Positions 12,921-64,000 of a DNA stretch of 64,000 bases are shown here, one piece after another; within the stretch, counting starts at the first letter, position 1; the number at the start of each line of letters is the position of its first letter. The DNA lies in the NCBI GenBank assembly GCA_951406725.2, contig OX597824.1, positions 20,894,001-20,958,000 of the forward strand. The letters are read 5' to 3'. A program made the position numbers and the translations under genes. The notes beneath the pieces were generated by a model. It had not been told where the DNA came from. It did not search any database and worked only from the letters and a program-made list of their open reading frames with translations. The DNA comes from Octopus vulgaris. Its lineage: Eukaryota.

Positions 12921-13289
12921 TGAAAAGGAACACACGAGTTGATATAGATGGGAAAAAAAGTCAAGGTAGAAAATACTAAAATAATTTTATGAAAAGCATA
13001 TCAGTACCGGTTTCAGTCATTGAGACTTTTTCAACTGTAAGTATGGAAAACAATAAAATTTTGGAAAAGTTAAAAGAAAAGTTTTTTTAAAAGAATATTT
13101 GTATAGTATTCAAATACAAGGGGCATTTTCCTTCTTGCATTTGAGTCTGTAGGACAGCTTCTGAAATTCTGATGTTTTGTGATATTGTAAAATAATTGCT
13201 TTATCTTTTTTTCCTTCTACGAAATTTAATTAATTATCTAGCACTCTTTTTTTTCTAATTAATTGTACTATAATCTATATACTATACCA

Positions 13290-13647
13290 GACCACGAACA
13301 GGACGTCACTGTGCTGTCCCCATTGTGCCAACTGCTTCATCTTGGGCAAGGACAATGTACTGCAATAGCTTGGGTTCCAAGAGTCCACAGCTGTTTAACT
13401 GTCTGCCGGAGCATCTGAGGAGCCTCCATGGAGTGGATGTAGACGTTTTCAAACGCGAACTTGACCTCTGGCTTGCCGAGATCCCGGATGAGCCAATATC
13501 TAGGCAAGAAACTCAAAGGAGGGCAGTAGCATCGAACTCCATCCTTCACCAGAAGCCACTCCAACAAAGGTGGAAAGATGATTGCAATGGCAGTGCTCCA
13601 GCATGGCCACAGTCATTGGACTGAAACATATAAGAGAATAAGAGAAT
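13290..13647 (+). mobile_element. CR1/L2-type LINE 3' end
   Basis: 'QLFNCLPEHLR...VDVFKRELDLWL' resembles the C-terminal WNxLP/FKxxLD motif; short-repeat tail (TAAGAGAA)2. Confidence 0.7.
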
Positions 13648-37879: not shown

Positions 37880-38295
37880 CAGATTCTACTATATGGCTTG
37901 AGAAACCTGGATGTTATCAAAGAAGCTTGAGAGGCAGTTGGATGGAACTTACACTCGCCTCCTTATGAGAGCTCGATATCTCTCGTGGAAGCATCATCCA
38001 ACCAAAGTACAAATATATGGGAAATTACCACCTGTACCATCTCTTGTGAAAGGTAGAAGAGTCCAGTTTGCTGGACATTGTTGTAGAGCTGAAAACGACG
38101 TAATTTCTACTCTTCTCCTCTGGAAGCCATCTGCTCGTGATACCAGAGGGCACACACTCTCCTACCCTGATGTAATCTCCAGGGATACAGGCATCCAGCA
38201 ACAGGACCTCCGTAATGCCATGATGGACCGTGAAGTCTGGCGTTACATAGTAAATTCCATTGTCTCAACCACGGTCGAACAATGATGATGATGAC
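37880..38295 (+). mobile_element. Non-LTR retrotransposon 3' fragment (RTE/RTEX-like)
   Basis: ORF 37911-38285 'LDGTYTRLLMRA...VQFAGHCCR...LLLWKP...AMMDREVWR' followed by a (GAT)n tail. Confidence 0.75.
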
Positions 38296-50920: not shown

Positions 50921-51474
50921 AAATTCTGTTTAATATTCCCCTACCCCCTTGGACATGTATACCATGTAGGAAATTTACTGTAGTTGGACTGTTTGAACTA
51001 AAAGTAGTGACCTTTCTGCCAATAATCTAAAGGGGAAACTATCAATAACTGATAGAAGGTGGAATCAATTCTAAATTGGTTTACAGTTCACGGTGATTAC
51101 ATCCTGAACTTTGATCAATGACGTACAAACCAATTTGGTTATCATTAAAAATAGACTCAGTGGGAATATTGGATATAAGGTCCAACACTGGACTAAAGTC
51201 ACAAGGAATCTGTCAATTCTTGACCGTGTTGATGTGTGTGTGTGTGTGTGTGTGGGTGTGTGTGTGAAACGTTAAGCTATAGATATGGTTGTTGCACAAT
51301 AGTTCTTCAGACAAGGGAAGCTATAATCGGTACCATGAGAAGGATTATACAGATATTCAATGTTAATGTGTAATTTTTTTTTTTTCCAGTTTTGATATTA
51401 TACTCCAGGTCAGGGCAAAAAAGGTCTTGTGTGATAATAAAAGGGCTATATTAGCGTATTATCTAAGTGTTTTT

Positions 51475-51591
<117 letters not shown>

Positions 51592-54500
51592 TTAAAAGGA
51601 GAAAGATTAGTTTGCAGACAGACATTTAAAAACAAACCCTAACACCTTGTGTTATAAGTTTCATAAATACGTATTTCTTTAAATATCTATGAATACATAC
51701 ATAGACAGACACACATATACAGACAGCTTCTCTCTCTCTCTCTCTTGCGACAGATGCATAGCTGAGATATTAGATATTTCTATTAAAAGTAAAATTACAG
51801 ATTTAAAATAGAATTAAATTATTTAGAAAATAATTTAAAGAAAAACAAATAAAAAAGTTTTTAAAAAACTAGTAATTTAACTGTGGCTGTGACGTTACTT
51901 GAAAATTTGTACATTTTTTCTTTCTAATTTATTTTTGAAAAGCTACAAGTAGATTTAATTTATTAACAGCTAATGAAAATTACATAATGTCAGTAATCAA
52001 ATTAAGAAAAAGAAAATAACTAAGGTTTTAAAGAGAAGATTGGAAGACATGCGTAAACTGGTGGGTCAATAACTGCATGCTTCAAAACTCCAATCCAGAA
52101 CAGTTTGTCATCTAGTAATGTAAAGTATTAAGAAAAAATTTTTAAAAGTGGTATTATGAGGGAGGTAAAAAAAAAATGCCACAATATAAATGATGGATTT
52201 TTTAACTAATGAATGAGTAGGTTGTGAAATATTGAATAAAAGACACTGAAACAATAAACAGGTGATGATGAAGTTGAAGGAAAATGATATATTTTTGTGC
52301 TGGGTTTCAGTGAAAGGCGACTACATTGGAAATTAGGCAAGGTTTTGAGGTATCAGGAAAGTAGATGAGAAAGAATGTTCTGTAGCTTCATATTCAGCAA
52401 CTGTAATATCTCAATTCTAGATTCTAAAGCTTTGTTCTGTGATAACCAAATATGGTGTGAAGAGATACAAACAAGATGGGAAATATAATCTTTCTTCTCC
52501 CAGACAGTTTTTTACTTTTAAATCATCCACAGTTCAAAAGCTTAAAACTCTAGTTGGGTTATCTGAAACCCCTTCCAATCACTGAAGTAATGATTTACTA
52601 GAGTATCGTACACAATAATTCAAGAATATTACTTCTGTCTATTCAATGAGAACAATTTAGCATTACCGTAGCAGCATCGCATGGCATCATTCTGTGATTT
52701 AAATTTCCAGCTTTCTGCTTTCTATCTAAATATTTCCTGTTTTTGTAAAATATCAACCACAGAAGAAAAATAAAAAAACAACAACAAAACCCTTCAAAGT
52801 TTTGTAAATAAACACAAGCAGGACTAAGTGGTCAAGAAGTTTGTTTTGCAACCATGTGATTTCAGGTTCAATCCCAATGCATAACACACTGAGCAGTTTC
52901 ATTCTACCATGGCTTTGGGTAGGTAAGTCTGGGAGATGGAAACTGTGTGGATGTCCAGTGGAACAGATCCTGTCTTTGAGTGGAAGACAGCATCTGTTGT
53001 GTTTTAACATGACCAGCTGAATCTTTGGTGCTTTTAGCAGAATCCACACCGTTATAATAATTCAAACTAGATCTCTGGTCAGAGAATAATCCCGTCCTTC
53101 TCTTGCATCAGTCAGAGGCCATACAGGAATTCATGGTCATTGCCCTTCTGCCTTTTGAGTGAAACAAGGGGTTAGTAGAGAAGCAGTGTACAGCAGGGCA
53201 TTACAGACACAAAACTGCTTTCCTTGCAGCAAACATTTTGACATTCTAGGCTTAACTGAATGCTAATCCGATGGCTAATTACTTCAGAAAGTGACTGAAA
53301 GGTTTCGTTGCTAAGTTAGTAAATCAAAACTGGTTTGAGAACAACAAAGCACTGACAACATTTCTTCAACAAGGAAGAATGCAAACAAACAAATTAAGAC
53401 TAGTGAAATAGAACACACTGAATTTTCCCAAGGAATTACACTGGACATGGGCAATCTTTTTTGAAAAACAGGCCACTTGAGACACAGCACTATTATCAAA
53501 CAGGCTGCATTACTAAATAATGCTGAAGGTAATTTTTCATTAGGCAGAACAAACAGAAAGTCCTGCTGCCTGCAGTTTGGCCATGACTGGTTCAGACGCT
53601 GAATAAACATGAAATATGAATATTGAGAAAGCTTTCAAATACTGATACAACCTACTTACTGGTGTTAAGCAAAGAATCAGAAATGCAAAATATCATTTAC
53701 TAAATATCAGCTATTTTAAAATAGATTCATTTAATAAAATCCCAAAGTAAAAAACGGTAATATTTTTTACAATTGGAAAGACAGAAACAAGACCTGAGTA
53801 ACCAACAAAATATGGTAGTAGCTTTAATAATTGTAGTCTCAATATTTTAATTAAAAATCTTATTTTAGGGAGATGTACTTGCATAGCGAGTGACTTGACC
53901 TGAGATTTGTGCTGGAACGAAAACAATTGCAGCACGAAGTTTTGTCAGTGAACAGGTCGCGGTCTCAAAGCGACGAAAATATTTTGACAAATTAAATTTA
54001 AATGTCAAAGTGAATCTAACGGTCTTTGTGTGTTTCTTAAATGGCTTATAAACACCTTCCACAATCTTATTTTAATTTTACAAGTAATCCAGAGAATTTG
54101 TTGGTTTGAGGACTCAGTGAAAAAGCTTCCCTATACCTGATACACAACTGATGGTTTCAAACTTCTAACTCTACTTTGGTGCCAGGTTTAACATTCTGCC
54201 TAGTTTCAAGCCACCTCTTGGTCCTTGAGTAACTTTAGTAGAGTTCATTCTGTCATAAGCATTCAAGCTAAGACCTCTGATCACTTTCCTACCTATATTT
54301 TTTCATGGTGATGTTCAGGTTGGGTATCAGTGTCTTTCTCACCAGTCTGGGAGGCCCTAAAAAGCTCAACGACTGTGATCTTTGGACTAAACCCACATCA
54401 ATACAATTAAATGTGATAATCACTACTCAAGATTTAAAAGATAAAGCTGGTCCCTATAATCAAAAGGCTAGATTATATTTTTAAGATTAGGAGTCAGTCA

Positions 54501-54794
54501 CAGAAGAAAAAAAAAACAAAAATATTTGGGAAAAACCAAGAAAATCAACCAATGTCCAGAACTTGAGAAAATAAAAGAAAAATAACAAAACCTTAAATTC
54601 ATGAAAAGAATCATGAAAAAAAGCAGAAAAAAAAAGAGCAGGAATTTTTTTTTTTTTAGATTAGCAAAGAAATGATTAATTTATTCCAGAGCAAACTTAA
54701 TTGAAGAATTGCTTTTTGATTTTTCAAACATGACACCATTTAGTATATTTGATCACTTTCAGTGTTTTTTTTTTTTAGAGTAATCTGAGCTCAC

Positions 54795-55078
54795 CTGCTT
54801 TAAAAGTCAGCTCATCTGGAGCCGTTGCACTATAATCATATAAAGCGCGCACTGGCACACCTGGTCGGTTATCATCCACCAATGTTGTGTCGTCAAGCCA
54901 ATCATCGCTGTCGGGGTCACCAAACGGATTCCTACCATCAGCATCTTTGATATCAGTAGTGGTGGTAGTAGTGGTAGTGGTAGTAGTAGGAGCAGTAATA
55001 GAAGAGTAAGGAGGAGGAGCAACGTATGTTGAGCTGGAGTATATTGAATCAGGGTTATGATTGTCAGCAGTCTCAGCA
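54795..55078 (-). CDS. PACSIN: PACSIN exon: PPPY, T11, NPF and the first half of SH3 (...VAPPPYSS...DGRNPFGDPDSDDWLDDTTLVDDNRPGVPVRALYDYSATAPDELTFKA)
   Basis: GVxVRALYDY...DELxFKAG preceded by an NPF/acidic linker is typical of syndapins; tttgcag| and G|GTGAGC; phase 2 to 1. Confidence 0.9.
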
Positions 55079-55826
55079 CTGCAAAGTTAACAGAAATAGT
55101 CGGTGGTGGAATTGTGGCAACAGGGAGACAAAAAGAAGCAAGGAGTGCAACAAGTTTTTTTTTTTTTTTTTTTTTAAATGGAAAGAAGAAGAAAAAAAAA
55201 GAAGATAATAATGAAGATTTAGAAAGAAAAAAAAAATACCCTTAAATCTACAGAAAAAACACAGGGATTTTCAAAGGAAAACATGCATATAAAGGATACA
55301 AAGAGGAAAAAAAAATAAAGGAAAATGGTTGAGAAAATCACATGCAAAGCGACATGGAGGAACGACATTAAAATGAATGCAAAAAAATTGAATATACAAA
55401 CATATAAAGCACACTGATTCTAGTAATAAAATATATATATATATATATATAGACATACACACATATATATATAGCTGTGCAATAGAAGGGAATTAGAAGT
55501 AATGGTGGTTTCCAGAACTTTCTCTTTTACATTTTTGAAACAATAACGAAGATTTAGACATTATTAACTGTTCAAATTATTGAGTTACAAATTTTTTTTT
55601 TCTTTCAGTTTCTTTAAAATCAGAAGGCACAAAGCCACAAGTTTTTAAGCAGAGAGCGGATTAACTGATTAAATTTACCCCAGGATTAGGATTGGATGAA
55701 ACGTTAAGTTTGACTTTAGTTGGACTTGGATTGAGAATGTAAAGAGCTGTAACTAAATACCACAAGGCATTTTGTACAACATTTTAATAACTCTGTCAAC
55801 CCACTTCAATGAAGATGATGATGGTA

Positions 55827-55866
<40 letters not shown>

Positions 55867-58800
55867 CAATCCCTTCTATTATAGGCACAGGGCCTGAAAT
55901 TTGGGGGAAGGGGTTAGTCAATTAAATCTACCCTGAAAGGATGAAAGGCAAAGTTGACCCAATGAGATTTGAACTCAGAATGTAAAGAGCCAGGAGAAGT
56001 GCTGCTTAGCACAATGATGATGATGATGATGATGATTTCAAATTTTGGCAGAAGGACATAGGAGAGGGGACAAGTCAATTGCATCAACCCCAGTACTTGC
56101 CGGGAACTTTGTTTTACTGACCCTGAAAGAATGAAGGGGCAGAGTTAAACTCAGTAGGATTTGATCTCAAGCTGGAAAGACTTGGAACAAAATACTGCAA
56201 AATATTTCGCTCAATGCTAAACCAATTCTGTCAAACCACATCTTTGATAATCGTTTCTAACCTAAGCACAAAGCCTCAAATTTGGTAGAATTGGTCAAAA
56301 CGGTCCCTGTACTTGCACTGGTTTTACCAATCCTGGATGGATTTGAACTTAGAATATAAACACCAGAACAAACACCACAAGGTATTTTCCCCACCAATTC
56401 TTTAACAATTCAATCAATCCAGCATCACAATACCAATAATAATATTTTAAAGAATTATTGATTTTGTCTGAAAACAGAAAAATATTGTCCAATCAAAACA
56501 GAAAAAAAAGTTTGGCAGATGAATCCAAAATAGGAACAAATGATAGTAAAAATAAAAGAAACAAGTTAATAAAGATTTAGAGTATGACATCTAAATTTTA
56601 CTTGAAAAGACGAATAATATTAAATTTAGAAGAAAATTGAAACTCATTTAATATAACATATTGGTAAGTTGCTGTTTTGTAAAATGCAGCATGCCAATAC
56701 AATAATAGTAATAATAATAATAAAAAGTACAAGAAAAACAGAGAAATATTGAAGCTAGACTGTTTCGGTAAATTCTTGGAGCCAGAACACTTATAGAAAA
56801 GCTTAGAATAGGAAAGCAAAAAATAAGTCAACGGAATGTTTATTTGTTCAGGAAAGCATAAAAACTAAGCTGCATTCTATTTGTAAATCAATTTTTAATT
56901 AAATTTTTGCATTTAAATCAGCCACATCAGGCCAAAATATTCACCCTGTTTTATGTTCAAACTGGCCAGATCTGGCCTCTCTCACCTATCCCACAATGTC
57001 ATTTTAAAAATAAACAATCACATCCTCAATATCTCGAAGCTATAAGCTACAATGCATTTCACAAACTAATCTGAATGCTTAGGGGTTAATCATCAAATAC
57101 TGAAAATCTGCAGAGAGAGAAACACCAGCTCAACAAACTAAATGTAGTCTTACAATATTTGATCTTGATGTCCTACATTCTAAGCTCAAATCTTGACAGT
57201 CCAACTTTGCTTTCCATTTCTTTAGAGCCGACAAAGTAAGAAATCTCCAATATGAACTCATATAATTTTCATTATAACCAAAACTGATTTTGGTTCCTAT
57301 ATATTCTGTGGCCTTGTACCAAATGTATTTATCAATGCTTTCCATAGCAAATTGGAATCGAAAATATCATCAAGACCAGGTCAGCGATAATTTTAATTTA
57401 AAATTCAAGCCTTAATGTCTGGTGTAGCGGTGACCATTTAAAAAAACAGAGTAAATCTCCAGTAAACCTATGAACCAGTTTCAAATCCTAGATGAAGCTA
57501 TTTAGCCACGACTCCAATGAAATCTGAAGTCTTGCACTTAAACAGTGCATCATTTCGGATTAATGATCTGTTAATCTTTTATAATCTACCTCATTACCAA
57601 ATATTGCCTTCTAATGATAAAACAGCTTCCAGTTACTTGCAAGGTTCAGAACTGTTAAAAGCAGACAAAACCAAGCCAAAACAAAAACCAAAATCCTCTT
57701 TGTTTGCAAAAGGAAAGTTAATATAATTCTTGTACTGAAAAAGAAAATGCTGACTGAAACAAACAACCTTTCTAAAATACTTGAGAAGGGTGTGTGTGTG
57801 TGTGTGCATGCATGTATATGCATGTACGTATTCTGCATGAAGAATTTAAGTGTGCTGCTTGAAAGCGCATGGCTTGTATAGTGAATGGGGAAAGCTTGGC
57901 CTGCAATGTTTGCAGCCATGTATGGTTGTCAAGGGCAGGGCTCATTAGCCACCAACAGAGCCGTAAATGCAAAATATAAGTTAGTCCTAGAGCGCAAAAT
58001 GTTCCTAAAAGTCGGCAATGGTCTTCCTCTGTCACGAGTGGACGACCATCATGTTGAAATGAAAAAATAGGGAGGATTTGTGAGAGCCAAAACCAATTGT
58101 AGTTCCAATGAGGAATCTGGAAAAGGTGTTGGATTCAGTAAATCACAGCACCAAACTTCAGTAATTTCTTTTGACTAGAGACAAACTCAGTTCCTACGGC
58201 AAATGTTATAGGGAACTGAACCGATTCTGGTTTGGTACAGTGGACTCTCACACTGAAGAGGATTCTGCAACTTTGTGCTGCACAACCTACACAGATGATT
58301 TCTTTTGTAGTGATCAAATGTATGTGGCATACGTTAGCGCACTCCCTTCATCAAATTGCTATTACCTGTACAGGTGCATGGTGTGCCACATGTCAGATAT
58401 CAGTGGTCATTAAGCAATTTGAAATGAAGTGTTCTGGTCAAGAACAACAAAGCACCACCTAGTCCAGGAATCAAAACCACCATCTTGTGAAAACACGAGT
58501 GCAACAACCTAACCACTAGGACATGTACCTTAATAAATGAATATATTTATGTTCACTTTGTAGCCACATGGTTTCAATTTCATTGTAGGACACCCAGGGC
58601 AAATGTCTTCAAATATAGCTTTGTGCCAACCAATGCCTTGTGAATTGCCAGACAGGAACAAATATGGAAATTAGTTTATCTAAGTATGTATACGTGTGTG
58701 TGTGTGTGTGTGTATGTATGTGTACAAATGCTGATGTTTCTTGACCTCACTGGTCACTGTCTGAATAATACAGTGATGTAATGTTTGCATTTCCCATTGA

Positions 58801-61014
58801 CAATACATCCTGTTGCTCAGTGTTTTCAAAGACCAGCAGAATAAAAAAAATAAAAATAAAAAACAAGCAAACCCCCCAAAAACACCCTTACTTGAAAGAC
58901 AAGTAATGGCTGGTGACAGGGAATGTGTCTAACTATAATCTACTGTCTTGAATAAACTTCTGTCCAACCCATGCTAGCATGGAAAAAACAGGCATAAAAA
59001 TGATCAAATGAGTGTGTGTCTGGTGTAACAGGTCCTTATCTCCTTCAGTGTTAGACTAATGGTTGTAAGAAAAATCCACAAGATTCAAGTAATACAATAG
59101 TTTCATTCCATCTGTTGTGTTATAGTTACAAGTCAGGTAGAAAATAAAAAATGATTGAATGCTATTAAGAAAAACCAGAAAAATTCCCCTTCCCTGCAAA
59201 ACACAATTTTTTTTCAAAATTCAAATAAGCAGAGTTTGTTTTTTAAATTCAAAATCATATTAATATGTGTTATCAATGATATGACAAAACGTACATGAAA
59301 ATAACCTAAACCTTAGACCTGAATGGAAAATATTTGCAAGCTTGTTATAAAATACAACAGTAAGCTTTTCAGACAGCTGACAATACAAAGAAGAATTACA
59401 AAGATGAAAAGAAAGGAAGGAAATAAGGAAGATATAAAAGAATCAAAGAGAGAAAAATAAAAAAAGGTGTTGCATGCAGTTTCAAAAACGAGCAAATAGC
59501 AACATGCACTGGCTGCAACTGTCATGGCATCAGATTGAGGAAAGACGGATCAAATTAGACAAACAGATGACAAAAGGAAAAGAAAAATGAAATCAACGGA
59601 GAGAAATTAATGGTTAAAATTTGGACAGAAAGCGGCTATATAAAATCTTTGGGAATAACAAAAAGGAACCTGCTCTTCATAGCCATTCCTATGCAGATAT
59701 TTTAGGTTGATTGCTATAAAATGAATTAAGAACTCTTCTAGCCAGAAAATTATTCTTTTAAGTGAAATTTGGAAAAAAAATCCCACATAATAGATAATGA
59801 TAAACATTGATATTAACCAACTTATTTAAAGAAAGGAAACAGTCCAAATAATCATTTAATATTTTTAAGCAAAGATTCTATATTGAATATAAAGTTTATA
59901 TATAGGACAGGTAGAATACAAACTGATGAAGAATAAATATAGAGACAGGTGCTTGCTTCCTTCTTTTTGCACTTTCTTAACTTTTTGGCATTTAAGCGGG
60001 CCATATCAGGTTAAAATATTCTGTCCGTTTTAGGTTGAAACTGACCAGATCTAACTTCTCTCACTTACCTGACAATGTCATTCTAAACTAAACAATCACA
60101 TCATTGAAATGCCAAAGCTACAAGACAATGTGAATGAGCATAAGATTTTGAAACTAGTCTGAATGTTAACGGACTAAGAAAATATATTGTCTGTCTAAAA
60201 GCTAAGCTTATATACAATGTGTAACAGTAATTTCAGTAAATTGTAAAAGGAAAGACCTTATATTACATATTGCATATGATATGCAAGTCGTGAATCTGAG
60301 GAAACATTAAAGATGAACCAAGGTGTACCTAGCCTTACCTGGGGTTATAGAGAATGTAAGCAAAAGTCAGATGAGCCCCTGTACAAAATTTAAGGTACCT
60401 ACACTCCCTACTAAATATATTAAGATGAAAACCTTAACGAACGTCGTTATTTTGTTAGTCTTTGAGCATAAATTTGTGTTAATTTAACTGCACAGTGTTA
60501 TAATTCATGAGTGATATTGAATTTCACCAACAAAAACGGTTAGAGGAAAACAGACCTGAGGGTAAAAAGATTATTGTATAAGCATGATAAGAAATAACAT
60601 TGTGTTTTTATATATACACACATATATATATATATATATATCATGCATATGCTCTTAAATTAATTAGCTACAACCAGATTTGTGAATATTCATATATATA
60701 TATACACATACACACATATATATGTATGTATGTATCTTTCCCCACCTCCCGACACAAATTCATAAATAACAGTCTGAAGCAAATCCCTTAGAGAAAGTAC
60801 GATGGAAAATAAGGGCACGTGGTAACCCTGTTGTGACTGTAGGTAAAAGCAGGTGGGGGGGGTGGCGAGTCTTGGTTTGTACTGATGTTGTTTGTTTGCA
60901 AGGTCAGATCTGGAGCGGTGCAAATGGAACAACTGATACAGGTTTACAACAATGGGAAGTTAGCTAACTGCCTGTGGTGGGGGCGGGTGTAGGATCGTAC
61001 CTACCTGGTAGAGA

Positions 61015-61882
61015 TCAATCAGAGAAATCAGACAAGGACTCGGTTTCAACACTGCGATAATAACCCTCAATCGACTGATCTGTGTTGGATCTGTTCAAAA
61101 CTCCATAGTCAGTTGATCCTTTTCGGCTGTCTATATATGGAGAGGATTGGTGCATAGGGCTCCTGTTATTGTTCAGGTTCTTATTTGGAGTGTTTATATT
61201 TCTGTTGACACCGATTCCTTTGTTACCTCCAGCAGGTTTCCCAAGTATCATGTCTCGAATTTCTTGGTCAAAGTTATCAGGTATTCCTCTATACTGGTTC
61301 TTTCTGGTTGGGATCGGCGATGGAGAGCTAGGTCTCCTCTCTTCTATGTGAATTGTAGGTGCATTTTGATTCATCATGGGTCTCATCATTGGGTTAGGTG
61401 GACCCTGGGGTTGTGGTGTCATGCTACCACGTCGATTTCCTGGACTTACTTTTGGCTCATTTATTACTGGTGGTCGCATGCCAGGTGGACCCATACCGGG
61501 TGGGCCCATTCCGGGTGGACCCATACCAGGTGGCCCCATTCCAGGTGGGCCCATGCCAGGTGGGCCCATACCAGGTGGGCCCATACCAGGTGGGCCCATG
61601 CCAGGTGGACCCATGCCAGGTGGTCTCATGCCAGCTGGACCCATGCCAGGTGGACCCATGCCAGGTGGACCCATACCAGGTGGACCCATACCAGGTGGTC
61701 TCATGCCAGCTGGACCCATACCTGGTGGTCTCATGCCACGGGGACTTGAAACATGGGAACGTGGATCCATTCCAAATTTAGCTGGTCCAGCACCCCGTCC
61801 TTGAGGCCCCATACCTGCGGGTGACTGAGTAGTTGGGTTGATTTTTATGCCAGTGTTCAAAGGTCCTTTCTGCCTGGGTGAG
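61015..61882 (-). CDS. PACSIN: Alternative PACSIN exon: 288 codons, Pro/Gly/Met-rich, 18 GM(G/R)P(P/A) repeats, ends in TGA
   Basis: Pyrimidine-rich tract ending ttactag|, phase 2; long open frame; repeat units differ mostly at synonymous third positions in this frame. Confidence 0.72.
61468..61737 (-). repeat. Coding 15-bp tandem repeat, 18 units (GMGPP/GMRPP/GMGPA)
   Basis: 270 nt of GGNATG(GGN/MGA)CCA(CCN/GCT) units. Confidence 0.95.
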
Positions 61883-62409
61883 CTAGTAAGGTAAATAGAG
61901 GAAGGAACAAAGGACTTAGAAAACATCATTGCTACGATTGGATATAAAAATTTCAATTTCATGTTAACAATTGCTATTTTAATCAAATAACCTACACAAT
62001 CCTGTAAATTATTAAGTGATCCAGATAAGAATCATTTAATAATCTATCGGCTGTAACAAACAACCTGAAGAAAGTCTGTTAGTGTTGTGTAAGCTCAAAG
62101 ATCAGCTCCTTGTAAAATAAGAATGGATTAAATTAAAGAATTTTCTTCTTCTTTGTACTAAGCTAGAAAATCATACCCCCCCCCCCCACTTCAGAAGAAC
62201 TAAAACTGAAGAGCTGAGAAGAAAAATTCTAATAATTTAATTTATTATTATTTTTTCTTTTAAGAGCCCGTCTAATCTATAATGGCAAAAGTCTGCATAG
62301 GAAGAGGTATGTTGTTGACAGGAACTTTCATTTCATGCCAAGATGCAGTAAATAAAATGTTTTTTTAGTAATTTAAATTATAGACACTGAACTGCAAACC
62401 TATCATTAC

Positions 62410-62569
62410 TTTTTCTTTTGAGATGCATCTTTCACCAAATGTTTAGCATCACTATGTATATCTTCGTCGTCAGATTCCTCTCCAAAAGGATTGAGACTTT
62501 CATCGTAGCTCTCTTGCCTATAAAAGGTATAGGAGCTATAAGACTGTTCAAATTCAATGAAGTCGAGAG
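62410..62569 (-). CDS. PACSIN: PACSIN/syndapin linker exon with NPF motif (LDFIEFEQSYSSYTFYRQESYDESLNPFGEESDDEDIHSDAKHLVKDASQKK)
   Basis: ttttag| acceptor, AA|GTAATG donor in phase 2, compatible with both the 61882 and 55078 acceptors; NPF with acidic flank. The acceptor could instead be near 62518. Confidence 0.7.
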
Positions 62570-64000
62570 CTAAAAGTATTGTGTTTTTAATTTTTGGCGG
62601 GAAGGGAATGTGGAGCCAAAGTAAAATTGAACAAACACACACGCATACACGTACACACGACACGCACACACACCATTCCATGCATTTTAAGATAAATTAT
62701 TAGATTTTTTTAAAAAAACAAGAATTTTTTTTTTTTTAAAGTGGATGTTAAGTTTCTTTGAGAGGATTATTTTCTGATAGGTATGGGCAATATAGATGAG
62801 AGAATTAATAAAACAAAAAACAACAAACGTGAAAAAAGAAAAAGGCAAGAAAATAGCGCCTTGTGTGTTTGAAAAAAAGCTCACCAAAATTTCAATTCGT
62901 TTACAGAATCAATAGTTATTAAACAAATAAATAGATATTAGATTGCTTTTGCAAGAAGAAACACACATAAACACACACAAGAAAATACAATAATAAAATT
63001 GGGAGAAAAAGAGAAATCAATAAACAATATCAAATACATGTGTTGTTTATCAAATTCATACAAATAAATAGAAACAATTTAGTATGATGTATTTGTTGGG
63101 ACCTGAAATATATTTTGTATGAGAGCTGAAAATAAAATGAAATTACTTGAAAAAAAAAAAAATAAAAAAACAGGCGAGAGAAACAAAGTCCAATCAGGAT
63201 GCTCAACTGATTAGACAAAATAACAATTTTCCCGATAGATTAAACCATTATTCTCATTTTGTTTTTTCCTTCCTAATACACAAAAATTAGTTGTAAATCA
63301 ACGTTTGATCTAAAAACATCTTTGCACTAAAGTTAACTCCCATCCTATACACATACATACAAAAGCAATTTTCTTTTTTTTTTGCTAGACTGCTCATTTA
63401 ATAGTGACTGCAAGAAAAAAAAAAAACCCCAAAAACTCATAAAATGAAGGGTTGGACAAAATCCTAGCTGTTCCCACTTAATGAAAACAATCTTATTGCT
63501 ACCGTAAATCTATATTAAACTAGATTAACCCATCTTGCAGATATTGACAAACTCATCATCTTCAATAACTCTCTTCTAAACCAATAAAATATCAGAGTAT
63601 CAACTGTTAATGAGTCATGAGTTTAAATGTACAACAAACATTTCACCAGAAGCACTGAGTAAATTATTAATTCTTATATTAGTTTATGTAACTTCAGAAT
63701 GGATATCAGCTTCCTCTGGGAAAGTTGCCCATAAAAATTAGTCATAGACTCGTTTGTCTCTCATCTACTTCACACCAGAGAAACTGATAATTGCTCTTAG
63801 TTCAACCCCGCCTCCTCCACCTTTTTTTTTTTTAGTTCATGCATGTAAAATTATAAGTTATAACATGCTCAGAGACCATTGTCTGTTTATACTGTTTTTT
63901 TTTGTTATTTTTTTTCCCTAAGTAGGACAACTTATGAGTACAGCTGAAACTTATTTCTTACCTTTATATTGGAATGGTAGGGAGGGATAAAATTTTGATT

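Follow-up and report, generated by a model that had tools for sequence, protein, structure and literature searches.

The window is a 64,000-nucleotide stretch of Octopus vulgaris DNA (G000:C11:20894001-20958000). Window positions are used throughout unless prefixed C11. It contains, on the minus strand, part of a PACSIN/syndapin gene. Residues 133 to 361 of the protein model P0001 map in order to F-BAR exons that lie upstream on the minus strand when 80 kb of adjoining DNA is added. The first 132 residues of P0001 lie beyond those 80 kb. The exon order for P0001 is five F-BAR exons, a linker exon ending at C11:20977902, and then the exon described here, which encodes a proline- and glycine-rich tail. 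This tail exon sits between the F-BAR exons and the NPF and SH3 exons of the gene. The FCH/F-BAR domain matched PF00611 in Pfam (E=2.7e-18), and P0005 gave an SH3_1 match (E=8.3e-14). A genome search with one F-BAR exon returned one match among three candidates, which is consistent with a single PACSIN gene. The features are given in Table 1.

Table 1. Positions of the PACSIN gene features discussed in the text
Feature	Window positions	Strand	Remark
Canonical last exon: second part of SH3 and stop	51475..51581	-	Spliced joint to 54795 in run X13
Canonical exon: NPF motif and first part of SH3	54795..55078	-	
Likely 3' UTR, minimum extent	60747..61014	-	Contig records
Alternative (likely last) PACSIN exon, coding part	61015..61882	-	288 codons and stop
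Island 2, acidic Ser/Thr-rich C-terminus, YYRSV to DFSD	61018..61062	-	14 of 15 residues identical in P0018
Island 1, starts RGIPD; hydrophobic spacing of a short amphipathic helix	61222..61290	-	Conserved in P0018
Repeat array, 18 x 15 nt, coding GMGPP/GMRPP/GMGPA	61468..61737	-	
Pyrimidine tract and AG acceptor, phase 2	61883..61912	-	Contig branch point in runs X1 and X2
AATAAA, candidate poly(A) signal of a second SH3-less form	62241..62246	-	160 nt after the 62406 stop
Optional 36-codon NPF exon	62410..62517	-	Starts at 62517 in models

The gene has a further optional NPF linker exon at L002:8423-8665 on the minus strand (C11 about 20966420-20966660). It contains about six copies of a 7-residue unit and is present in models P0008, P0012, P0013, and P0014. 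In P0012 (CAI9729813.1), the 36-codon NPF exon reads past its donor to a stop at 62406, which would give a second SH3-less form. P0016, a distant Logan protein, ends at a place matching the 62406 stop; this end may be a conserved stop or the end of its contig.

The original prediction placed an exon of 288 codons between 61882 and a stop at 61015. The AG acceptor with its pyrimidine tract, the open frame, and the stop are all present. The stop is a TGA at 61017-61015 (minus strand), and the 288 codons are counted after the split codon. The encoded sequence is 21% proline, 18% glycine, and 9% methionine. The array contains 12 GMGPP, 4 GMRPP, and 2 GMGPA units. It had been described as (GMGPP)18; the count of 18 units holds, and the formula is an approximation, since only 12 of the 18 units read GMGPP.

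The units had also been said to vary mainly at synonymous sites, as expected of a translated sequence, and the counts bear this out. Relative to the unit consensus, the coding frame has 19 synonymous and 6 non-synonymous codon differences (pN/pS 0.11). The best non-coding frame (antisense, also Gly/Pro) has 13 synonymous versus 15 non-synonymous differences, and the remaining four frames have no synonymous ones. Because the repeat units share ancestry, distinct alleles were also counted; third positions hold 7 of 10 (p=0.02). The 198 non-repeat codons would stay open by chance with a probability of about 2e-5 at local composition, and the non-repeat tail is single-copy in its own genome. Five differences within the exon were listed from contigs. 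Three are synonymous, and the other two share one codon and jointly convert a GMRPP unit to GMGPP. The stretch from 61882 to 61015 is a real, constrained coding exon. A dispersed-repeat origin of the array was considered and rejected: it has just one other match in G000 (80% over 83 nt), and no GMGPP frame was present among the 10 open reading frames listed around that match. Inside the exon, there is a donor-like site at 61450 (minus strand, phase 0, 8/9 consensus) that the listed contigs and the models do not use. The tail frame is open for 50 codons upstream of the acceptor, with in-frame ATGs at 61962, 61929, and 61926 (minus strand).

A search with 143 aa of the window tail matched P0001's tail at 100% identity. 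Four close homologs contain 13 to 18 repeat units, with 91 to 100% identity outside the repeat. A HMMER scan of 1.84 billion representatives returned two matches, P0002 and P0018. P0018 is 52% identical to the tail (E=3e-15), and its non-repeat alignment scores 276, versus a maximum of 87 in 3000 shuffles. It is a tail-only protein from a 1354-nt assembly contig. P0002, P0006, and P0018 are all tail-only proteins from contigs of about 1.3 kb, so that their link to a PACSIN gene is presumptive. P0018 has a different, longer repeat unit of similar composition (P 17%, G 21%, M 7%). It retains island 1, island 2, and the same last residue. The islands and the end residue are kept despite the different repeat unit, and the tail is therefore a constrained protein sequence. 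None of five candidates was a relative of 78 to 251 aa. Among the 6 matches of 40 candidates, there was no full-length F-BAR and tail protein outside the genus Octopus. The tail had no match in Pfam, in a PDB sequence search, or in the ESM Atlas.

Island 1 resembles, in our estimation, the WH2 actin-binding motif. It had no Pfam WH2 or solved-structure match at E<=10, a search in which short motifs are easily missed. The tail contains three R[RK]x[ST] sites versus 0.33 expected (p=0.004), and such sites are also present in P0018. They are presumably of the PKA type. A fold prediction for P0004 from 13 sequences had a mean pLDDT of 39 and was poor over the F-BAR domain too, with one helix (607-615) over island 1; the model is too poor overall to show disorder and is not used as evidence.

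Three models contain both the F-BAR domain and the tail. These are P0001 (CAI9729814.1, O. vulgaris), P0004 (XP_036362971.1, "isoform X1," O. sinensis), and P0005 (XP_052827969.1, an O. bimaculoides RefSeq model). P0001 and P0004 end at the tail stop. All three models join the tail from the linker exon, whose donor sits 22 kb upstream of the tail exon. The donors of the linker exon and of the 36-codon exon at 62410 are both phase 2, and either could therefore reach either acceptor (61882 or 55078). The 62410 donor was originally given the choice between these acceptors. It is in frame with both, and its join to the tail is found in 0 of the 3 models. Intron contigs of runs X1 and X2 also cross 62410 and 62517 unbroken, so a path entering at the acceptor is unlikely to come from 62410 in those runs. 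The splice from 62410 to 61882 was rejected, although it is in frame. Five O. vulgaris models of the PACSIN gene were seen (CAI9729810-14). We assumed that they derive from the annotation of bioRxiv 10.1101/2023.05.16.540928, which states that PASA updates based on assembled transcripts supplied the alternative forms. Transcript backing for P0001 is therefore likely, not certain.

Contigs from 4 of the 24 listed runs (X1, X2, X8, and X13) were placed on 51300-64000. The runs were guessed to be RNA, and they cover introns too. The orientation of contig records was deduced from plus and minus records that match each other at 57967-58680. One X2 contig starts exactly at 61882 and extends to 60747. 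Intron contigs of X1 and X2, which come from two studies, stop exactly at 61853 and so overlap the exon by 30 nt. Such an overlap, 30 nt up to the acceptor, would be expected of an assembly graph where a second path enters the exon. The last base is A in both upstream exons checked and G in the intron. Listed contigs of X8 and X13 (2 of the 4 runs) cross 61882 without a break. Contigs of X2 and X8 are unbroken over the stop and reach 60747. Junction letters were absent from the 15 of 80 joints, 24 of 1137 loose ends, and 32 of 8950 pieces listed, which are mostly repeats. That the linker exon is spliced to the tail, and that the protein ends at the tail stop, is well supported, though indirectly. 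Contig depths over 61052-61475 and 54692-55115 were 111.7 and 25.5 in X1, 32.9 and 32 in X2, 34.9 and 171 in X8, and 2.75 and 149 in X13; the contrast hints at sample-dependent exon choice, and contig depth cannot rank gene parts, so it is not counted as evidence.

Two other structures can be proposed for the exon. It could be an internal cassette that keeps the SH3 domain by an unusual splice at the stop codon or by recoding of the stop. P0005 has this form, in which a single Cys follows the last residue of the tail and leads into the NPF and SH3 exons, and a strong donor-like site follows the stop after 61005 (minus strand, 10 nt past the stop, 8/9 consensus). Against a cassette, a P0005-type join in the window would need an intron starting with AT. 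The 61005 site is phase 1 and comes only after the stop, in a different frame from 55078, and neither the listed contigs nor the models use it. P0005 also lacks 26 F-BAR residues found in P0001, a hint that it is a faulty model, and we regard it as likely to be one. The tail's last residue is the protein end in six proteins (P0001, P0002, P0003, P0004, P0006, and P0018), and P0003 is an older model from O. bimaculoides itself. A letter change fitting A-to-I recoding of the stop was not present among the 40 of 131 difference rows listed, and the X2 contig that covers the stop differs from the window by just two letters, both of them elsewhere. The X2 and X8 contigs run unbroken over the stop and the 61005 site, which fits a last exon. 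Weighing against a last exon, no canonical AATAAA occurs within 2.5 kb after the tail stop, only the variants TATAAA at 60612 and AATATA at 60421. Taken together, a cassette is highly improbable. Alternatively, the main product of the exon could be a tail protein on its own, lacking the F-BAR domain and made from an intronic start or unspliced RNA. The three in-frame ATGs upstream of the acceptor would allow this. The corresponding stretch contains the starts of P0002 and P0006, even though its length differs by four codons, and the X8 and X13 contigs are unbroken at the acceptor. The runs cover all introns, however, and unspliced contigs are therefore expected. The X1 and X2 contigs branch exactly at the acceptor, all three full models splice there, and the phase 2 of the exon agrees with every upstream PACSIN donor. 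We consider a mainly stand-alone product very unlikely.

The product is most likely a syndapin isoform without SH3 and NPF. P0001 has no SH3 match in Pfam. The tail is joined from the linker exon, and the tail isoform therefore lacks the NPF motif (0 NPF). An SH3-less F-BAR isoform with this tail had been predicted from the window. The models of two species, the branch at the acceptor in two of four runs, and the conservation in P0018 agree with it, and P0005, which keeps the SH3 domain, does not. That a spliced, translated SH3-less isoform exists is, in our judgment, quite probable. The part of it encoded beyond the last F-BAR exon comprises 338 residues, versus 179 in the canonical form with the SH3 domain included. 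The window tail contains 15 PPG-hydrophobic motifs, and P0003, P0002, and P0018 contain 12, 9, and 8. It contains no class I or II SH3-ligand motif ([RK]xxPxxP or PxxPx[RK]). PPG-hydrophobic is the GYF consensus (excerpt of PMC10187677), and the GYF partners described in the sources consulted act on mRNA and splicing, not on membranes. The lack of SH3 ligands and the roles of these partners weigh against the membrane-shaping role proposed below. From its motifs, we infer that the tail may bind GYF or WW domains and may form condensates. Its composition would fit a condensate-forming disordered region.

The PACSIN SH3 domain binds dynamin and N-WASP and clamps the F-BAR domain through an acidic surface placed on a basic patch, and the NPF motifs bind EHD proteins (excerpts of PMC9285741 and PMC4021885). 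In vitro, crowding by a 412-residue disordered region on an F-BAR protein turned tubulation into fission (excerpt of PMC6363457). The best overall explanation, which we hold tentatively and put somewhat short of an even chance, is that an alternative last exon yields an unclamped F-BAR dimer that shapes membranes through a predicted disordered tail. The tail exon would be spliced to the F-BAR and linker exons as an alternative last exon. Loss of SH3 and NPF would presumably prevent recruitment of dynamin, N-WASP, or EHD proteins. Loss of SH3 would also be expected to free the F-BAR domain from its clamp. Each dimer would display two 338-residue tails, and these would crowd on an F-BAR lattice. 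By analogy with the FCHo1 and amphiphysin tails, crowding may drive tubules to high curvature or fission. The 15 PPG-hydrophobic motifs may contribute multivalent, low-affinity binding. The two conserved islands are likely sites for specific partners, and the three R[RK]x[ST] sites are likely kinase switches. If the spliced, translated isoform is granted, a crowding, multivalent membrane shaper stands at about an even chance of being its main role.

The closest rival accepts the same isoform and makes the tail a replacement clamp or a single-partner adaptor, with the repeat merely a spacer. As a clamp, the acidic C-terminus or the helix would fold back onto the basic F-BAR surface. As an adaptor, the tail would bind one protein. 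Conservation is far stronger in the islands than in the repeat unit, and four acidic residues and four Ser/Thr lie among the last 11 residues of the tail. The SH3 clamp itself works by an acidic surface on a basic F-BAR patch (excerpt of PMC4021885). P0018, on the other side, keeps the Pro/Gly/Met composition and eight PPG-hydrophobic motifs despite its changed unit, which suggests that the repeat does more than space. We regard a clamp or adaptor role as unlikely, though worth keeping in view. A negative role would give the tail sequence little importance. Heterodimers with canonical syndapin would dilute the SH3 domain, or transcripts would be diverted. SH3-deleted PACSINs are described as dominant-negative (excerpt of PMC9285741), and P0012 is a second, short SH3-less model. 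A plain truncation, however, would not require a tail of 288 codons whose islands are conserved at an overall identity of 52%. A purely negative role appears quite unlikely, and membrane shaping by the crowded tails is the reading that we prefer.

The gene belongs to the PACSIN/syndapin family (vertebrate PACSIN1-3 and Drosophila Syndapin) and has the same layout of FCH/F-BAR, NPF linker exons, and SH3. Its optional NPF exons recall the long and short forms of PACSIN2 (excerpt of PMC9285741). The tail isoform differs in that it has no NPF and no SH3, whereas the mammalian PACSINs are all EFC-SH3 proteins (excerpt of PMC2780292). It is a variant product of the PACSIN gene and not a canonical PACSIN protein. 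FCHo1/Syp1 and amphiphysin likewise combine a BAR scaffold with several hundred disordered residues and cause fission by crowding (excerpt of PMC6363457). These proteins have a folded terminal domain, either mu-homology or SH3, and their layout is constitutive. In contrast, the octopus form depends on exon choice, has no terminal domain, and carries a basic Pro/Gly/Met repeat whose disorder is predicted only. The SH3-less CIP4 variant is likewise an F-BAR product without SH3 (excerpt of PMC4021885). It is a truncated form from renal cancer, belongs to another F-BAR subfamily, and has no long conserved replacement tail. We take its name to be CIP4-V. The C-terminal motifs of SmB/B'/N (ligands of the FBP21 WW and CD2BP2 GYF domains) and the GIGYF ligands share GMRPP and PPGM words with the tail (excerpts of PMC5127646 and PMC10187677). 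The SmN/B motifs have runs of three to four prolines flanked by Arg, whereas the octopus tail has runs of two prolines, and most of its units lack Arg. This is a likeness of words only.

The original prediction knew of no such isoform for the family. It is present in databases as "hypothetical" or "uncharacterized" protein, and no paper on it was found among the titles listed from the syndapin/PACSIN isoform and cephalopod literature, in a search that covered mainly papers outside subscription journals. The supplements of PMC9699675 gave 0 matches within the 24,410 characters of text searched. The isoform is thus annotated in databases and apparently unstudied. The SH3-less PACSINs in the parts of the literature consulted were engineered mutants only. 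If the isoform is as proposed, it would offer a natural test of whether, in an animal, a BAR lattice and the crowding of disordered tails can stand in for dynamin recruitment. It would also test how a lineage in which one syndapin gene was found diversifies it where vertebrates use three paralogs. The two islands are concrete baits for partner finding. A bolder proposal, which we regard as a long shot, is that cephalopods switch their syndapin by tissue through last-exon choice, one form being an adaptor that recruits dynamin and the other a membrane shaper that acts independently of it. A lattice with about 30 PPGM motifs per dimer would nucleate a kinase-controlled condensate on curved membranes, possibly tethering GYF- or WW-domain RNA regulators. 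The tail would then be old within the group, and the islands would be undescribed binding motifs.

The canonical NPF/SH3 exon contains a poly-Thr run at 54990-54950 (minus strand). It has 11 residues in the O. vulgaris models and 6 in those of O. bimaculoides. Elsewhere in the window, the short open frames at 13274-13621 and 37902-38282 (plus strand) resemble what we take to be retroelement fragments.
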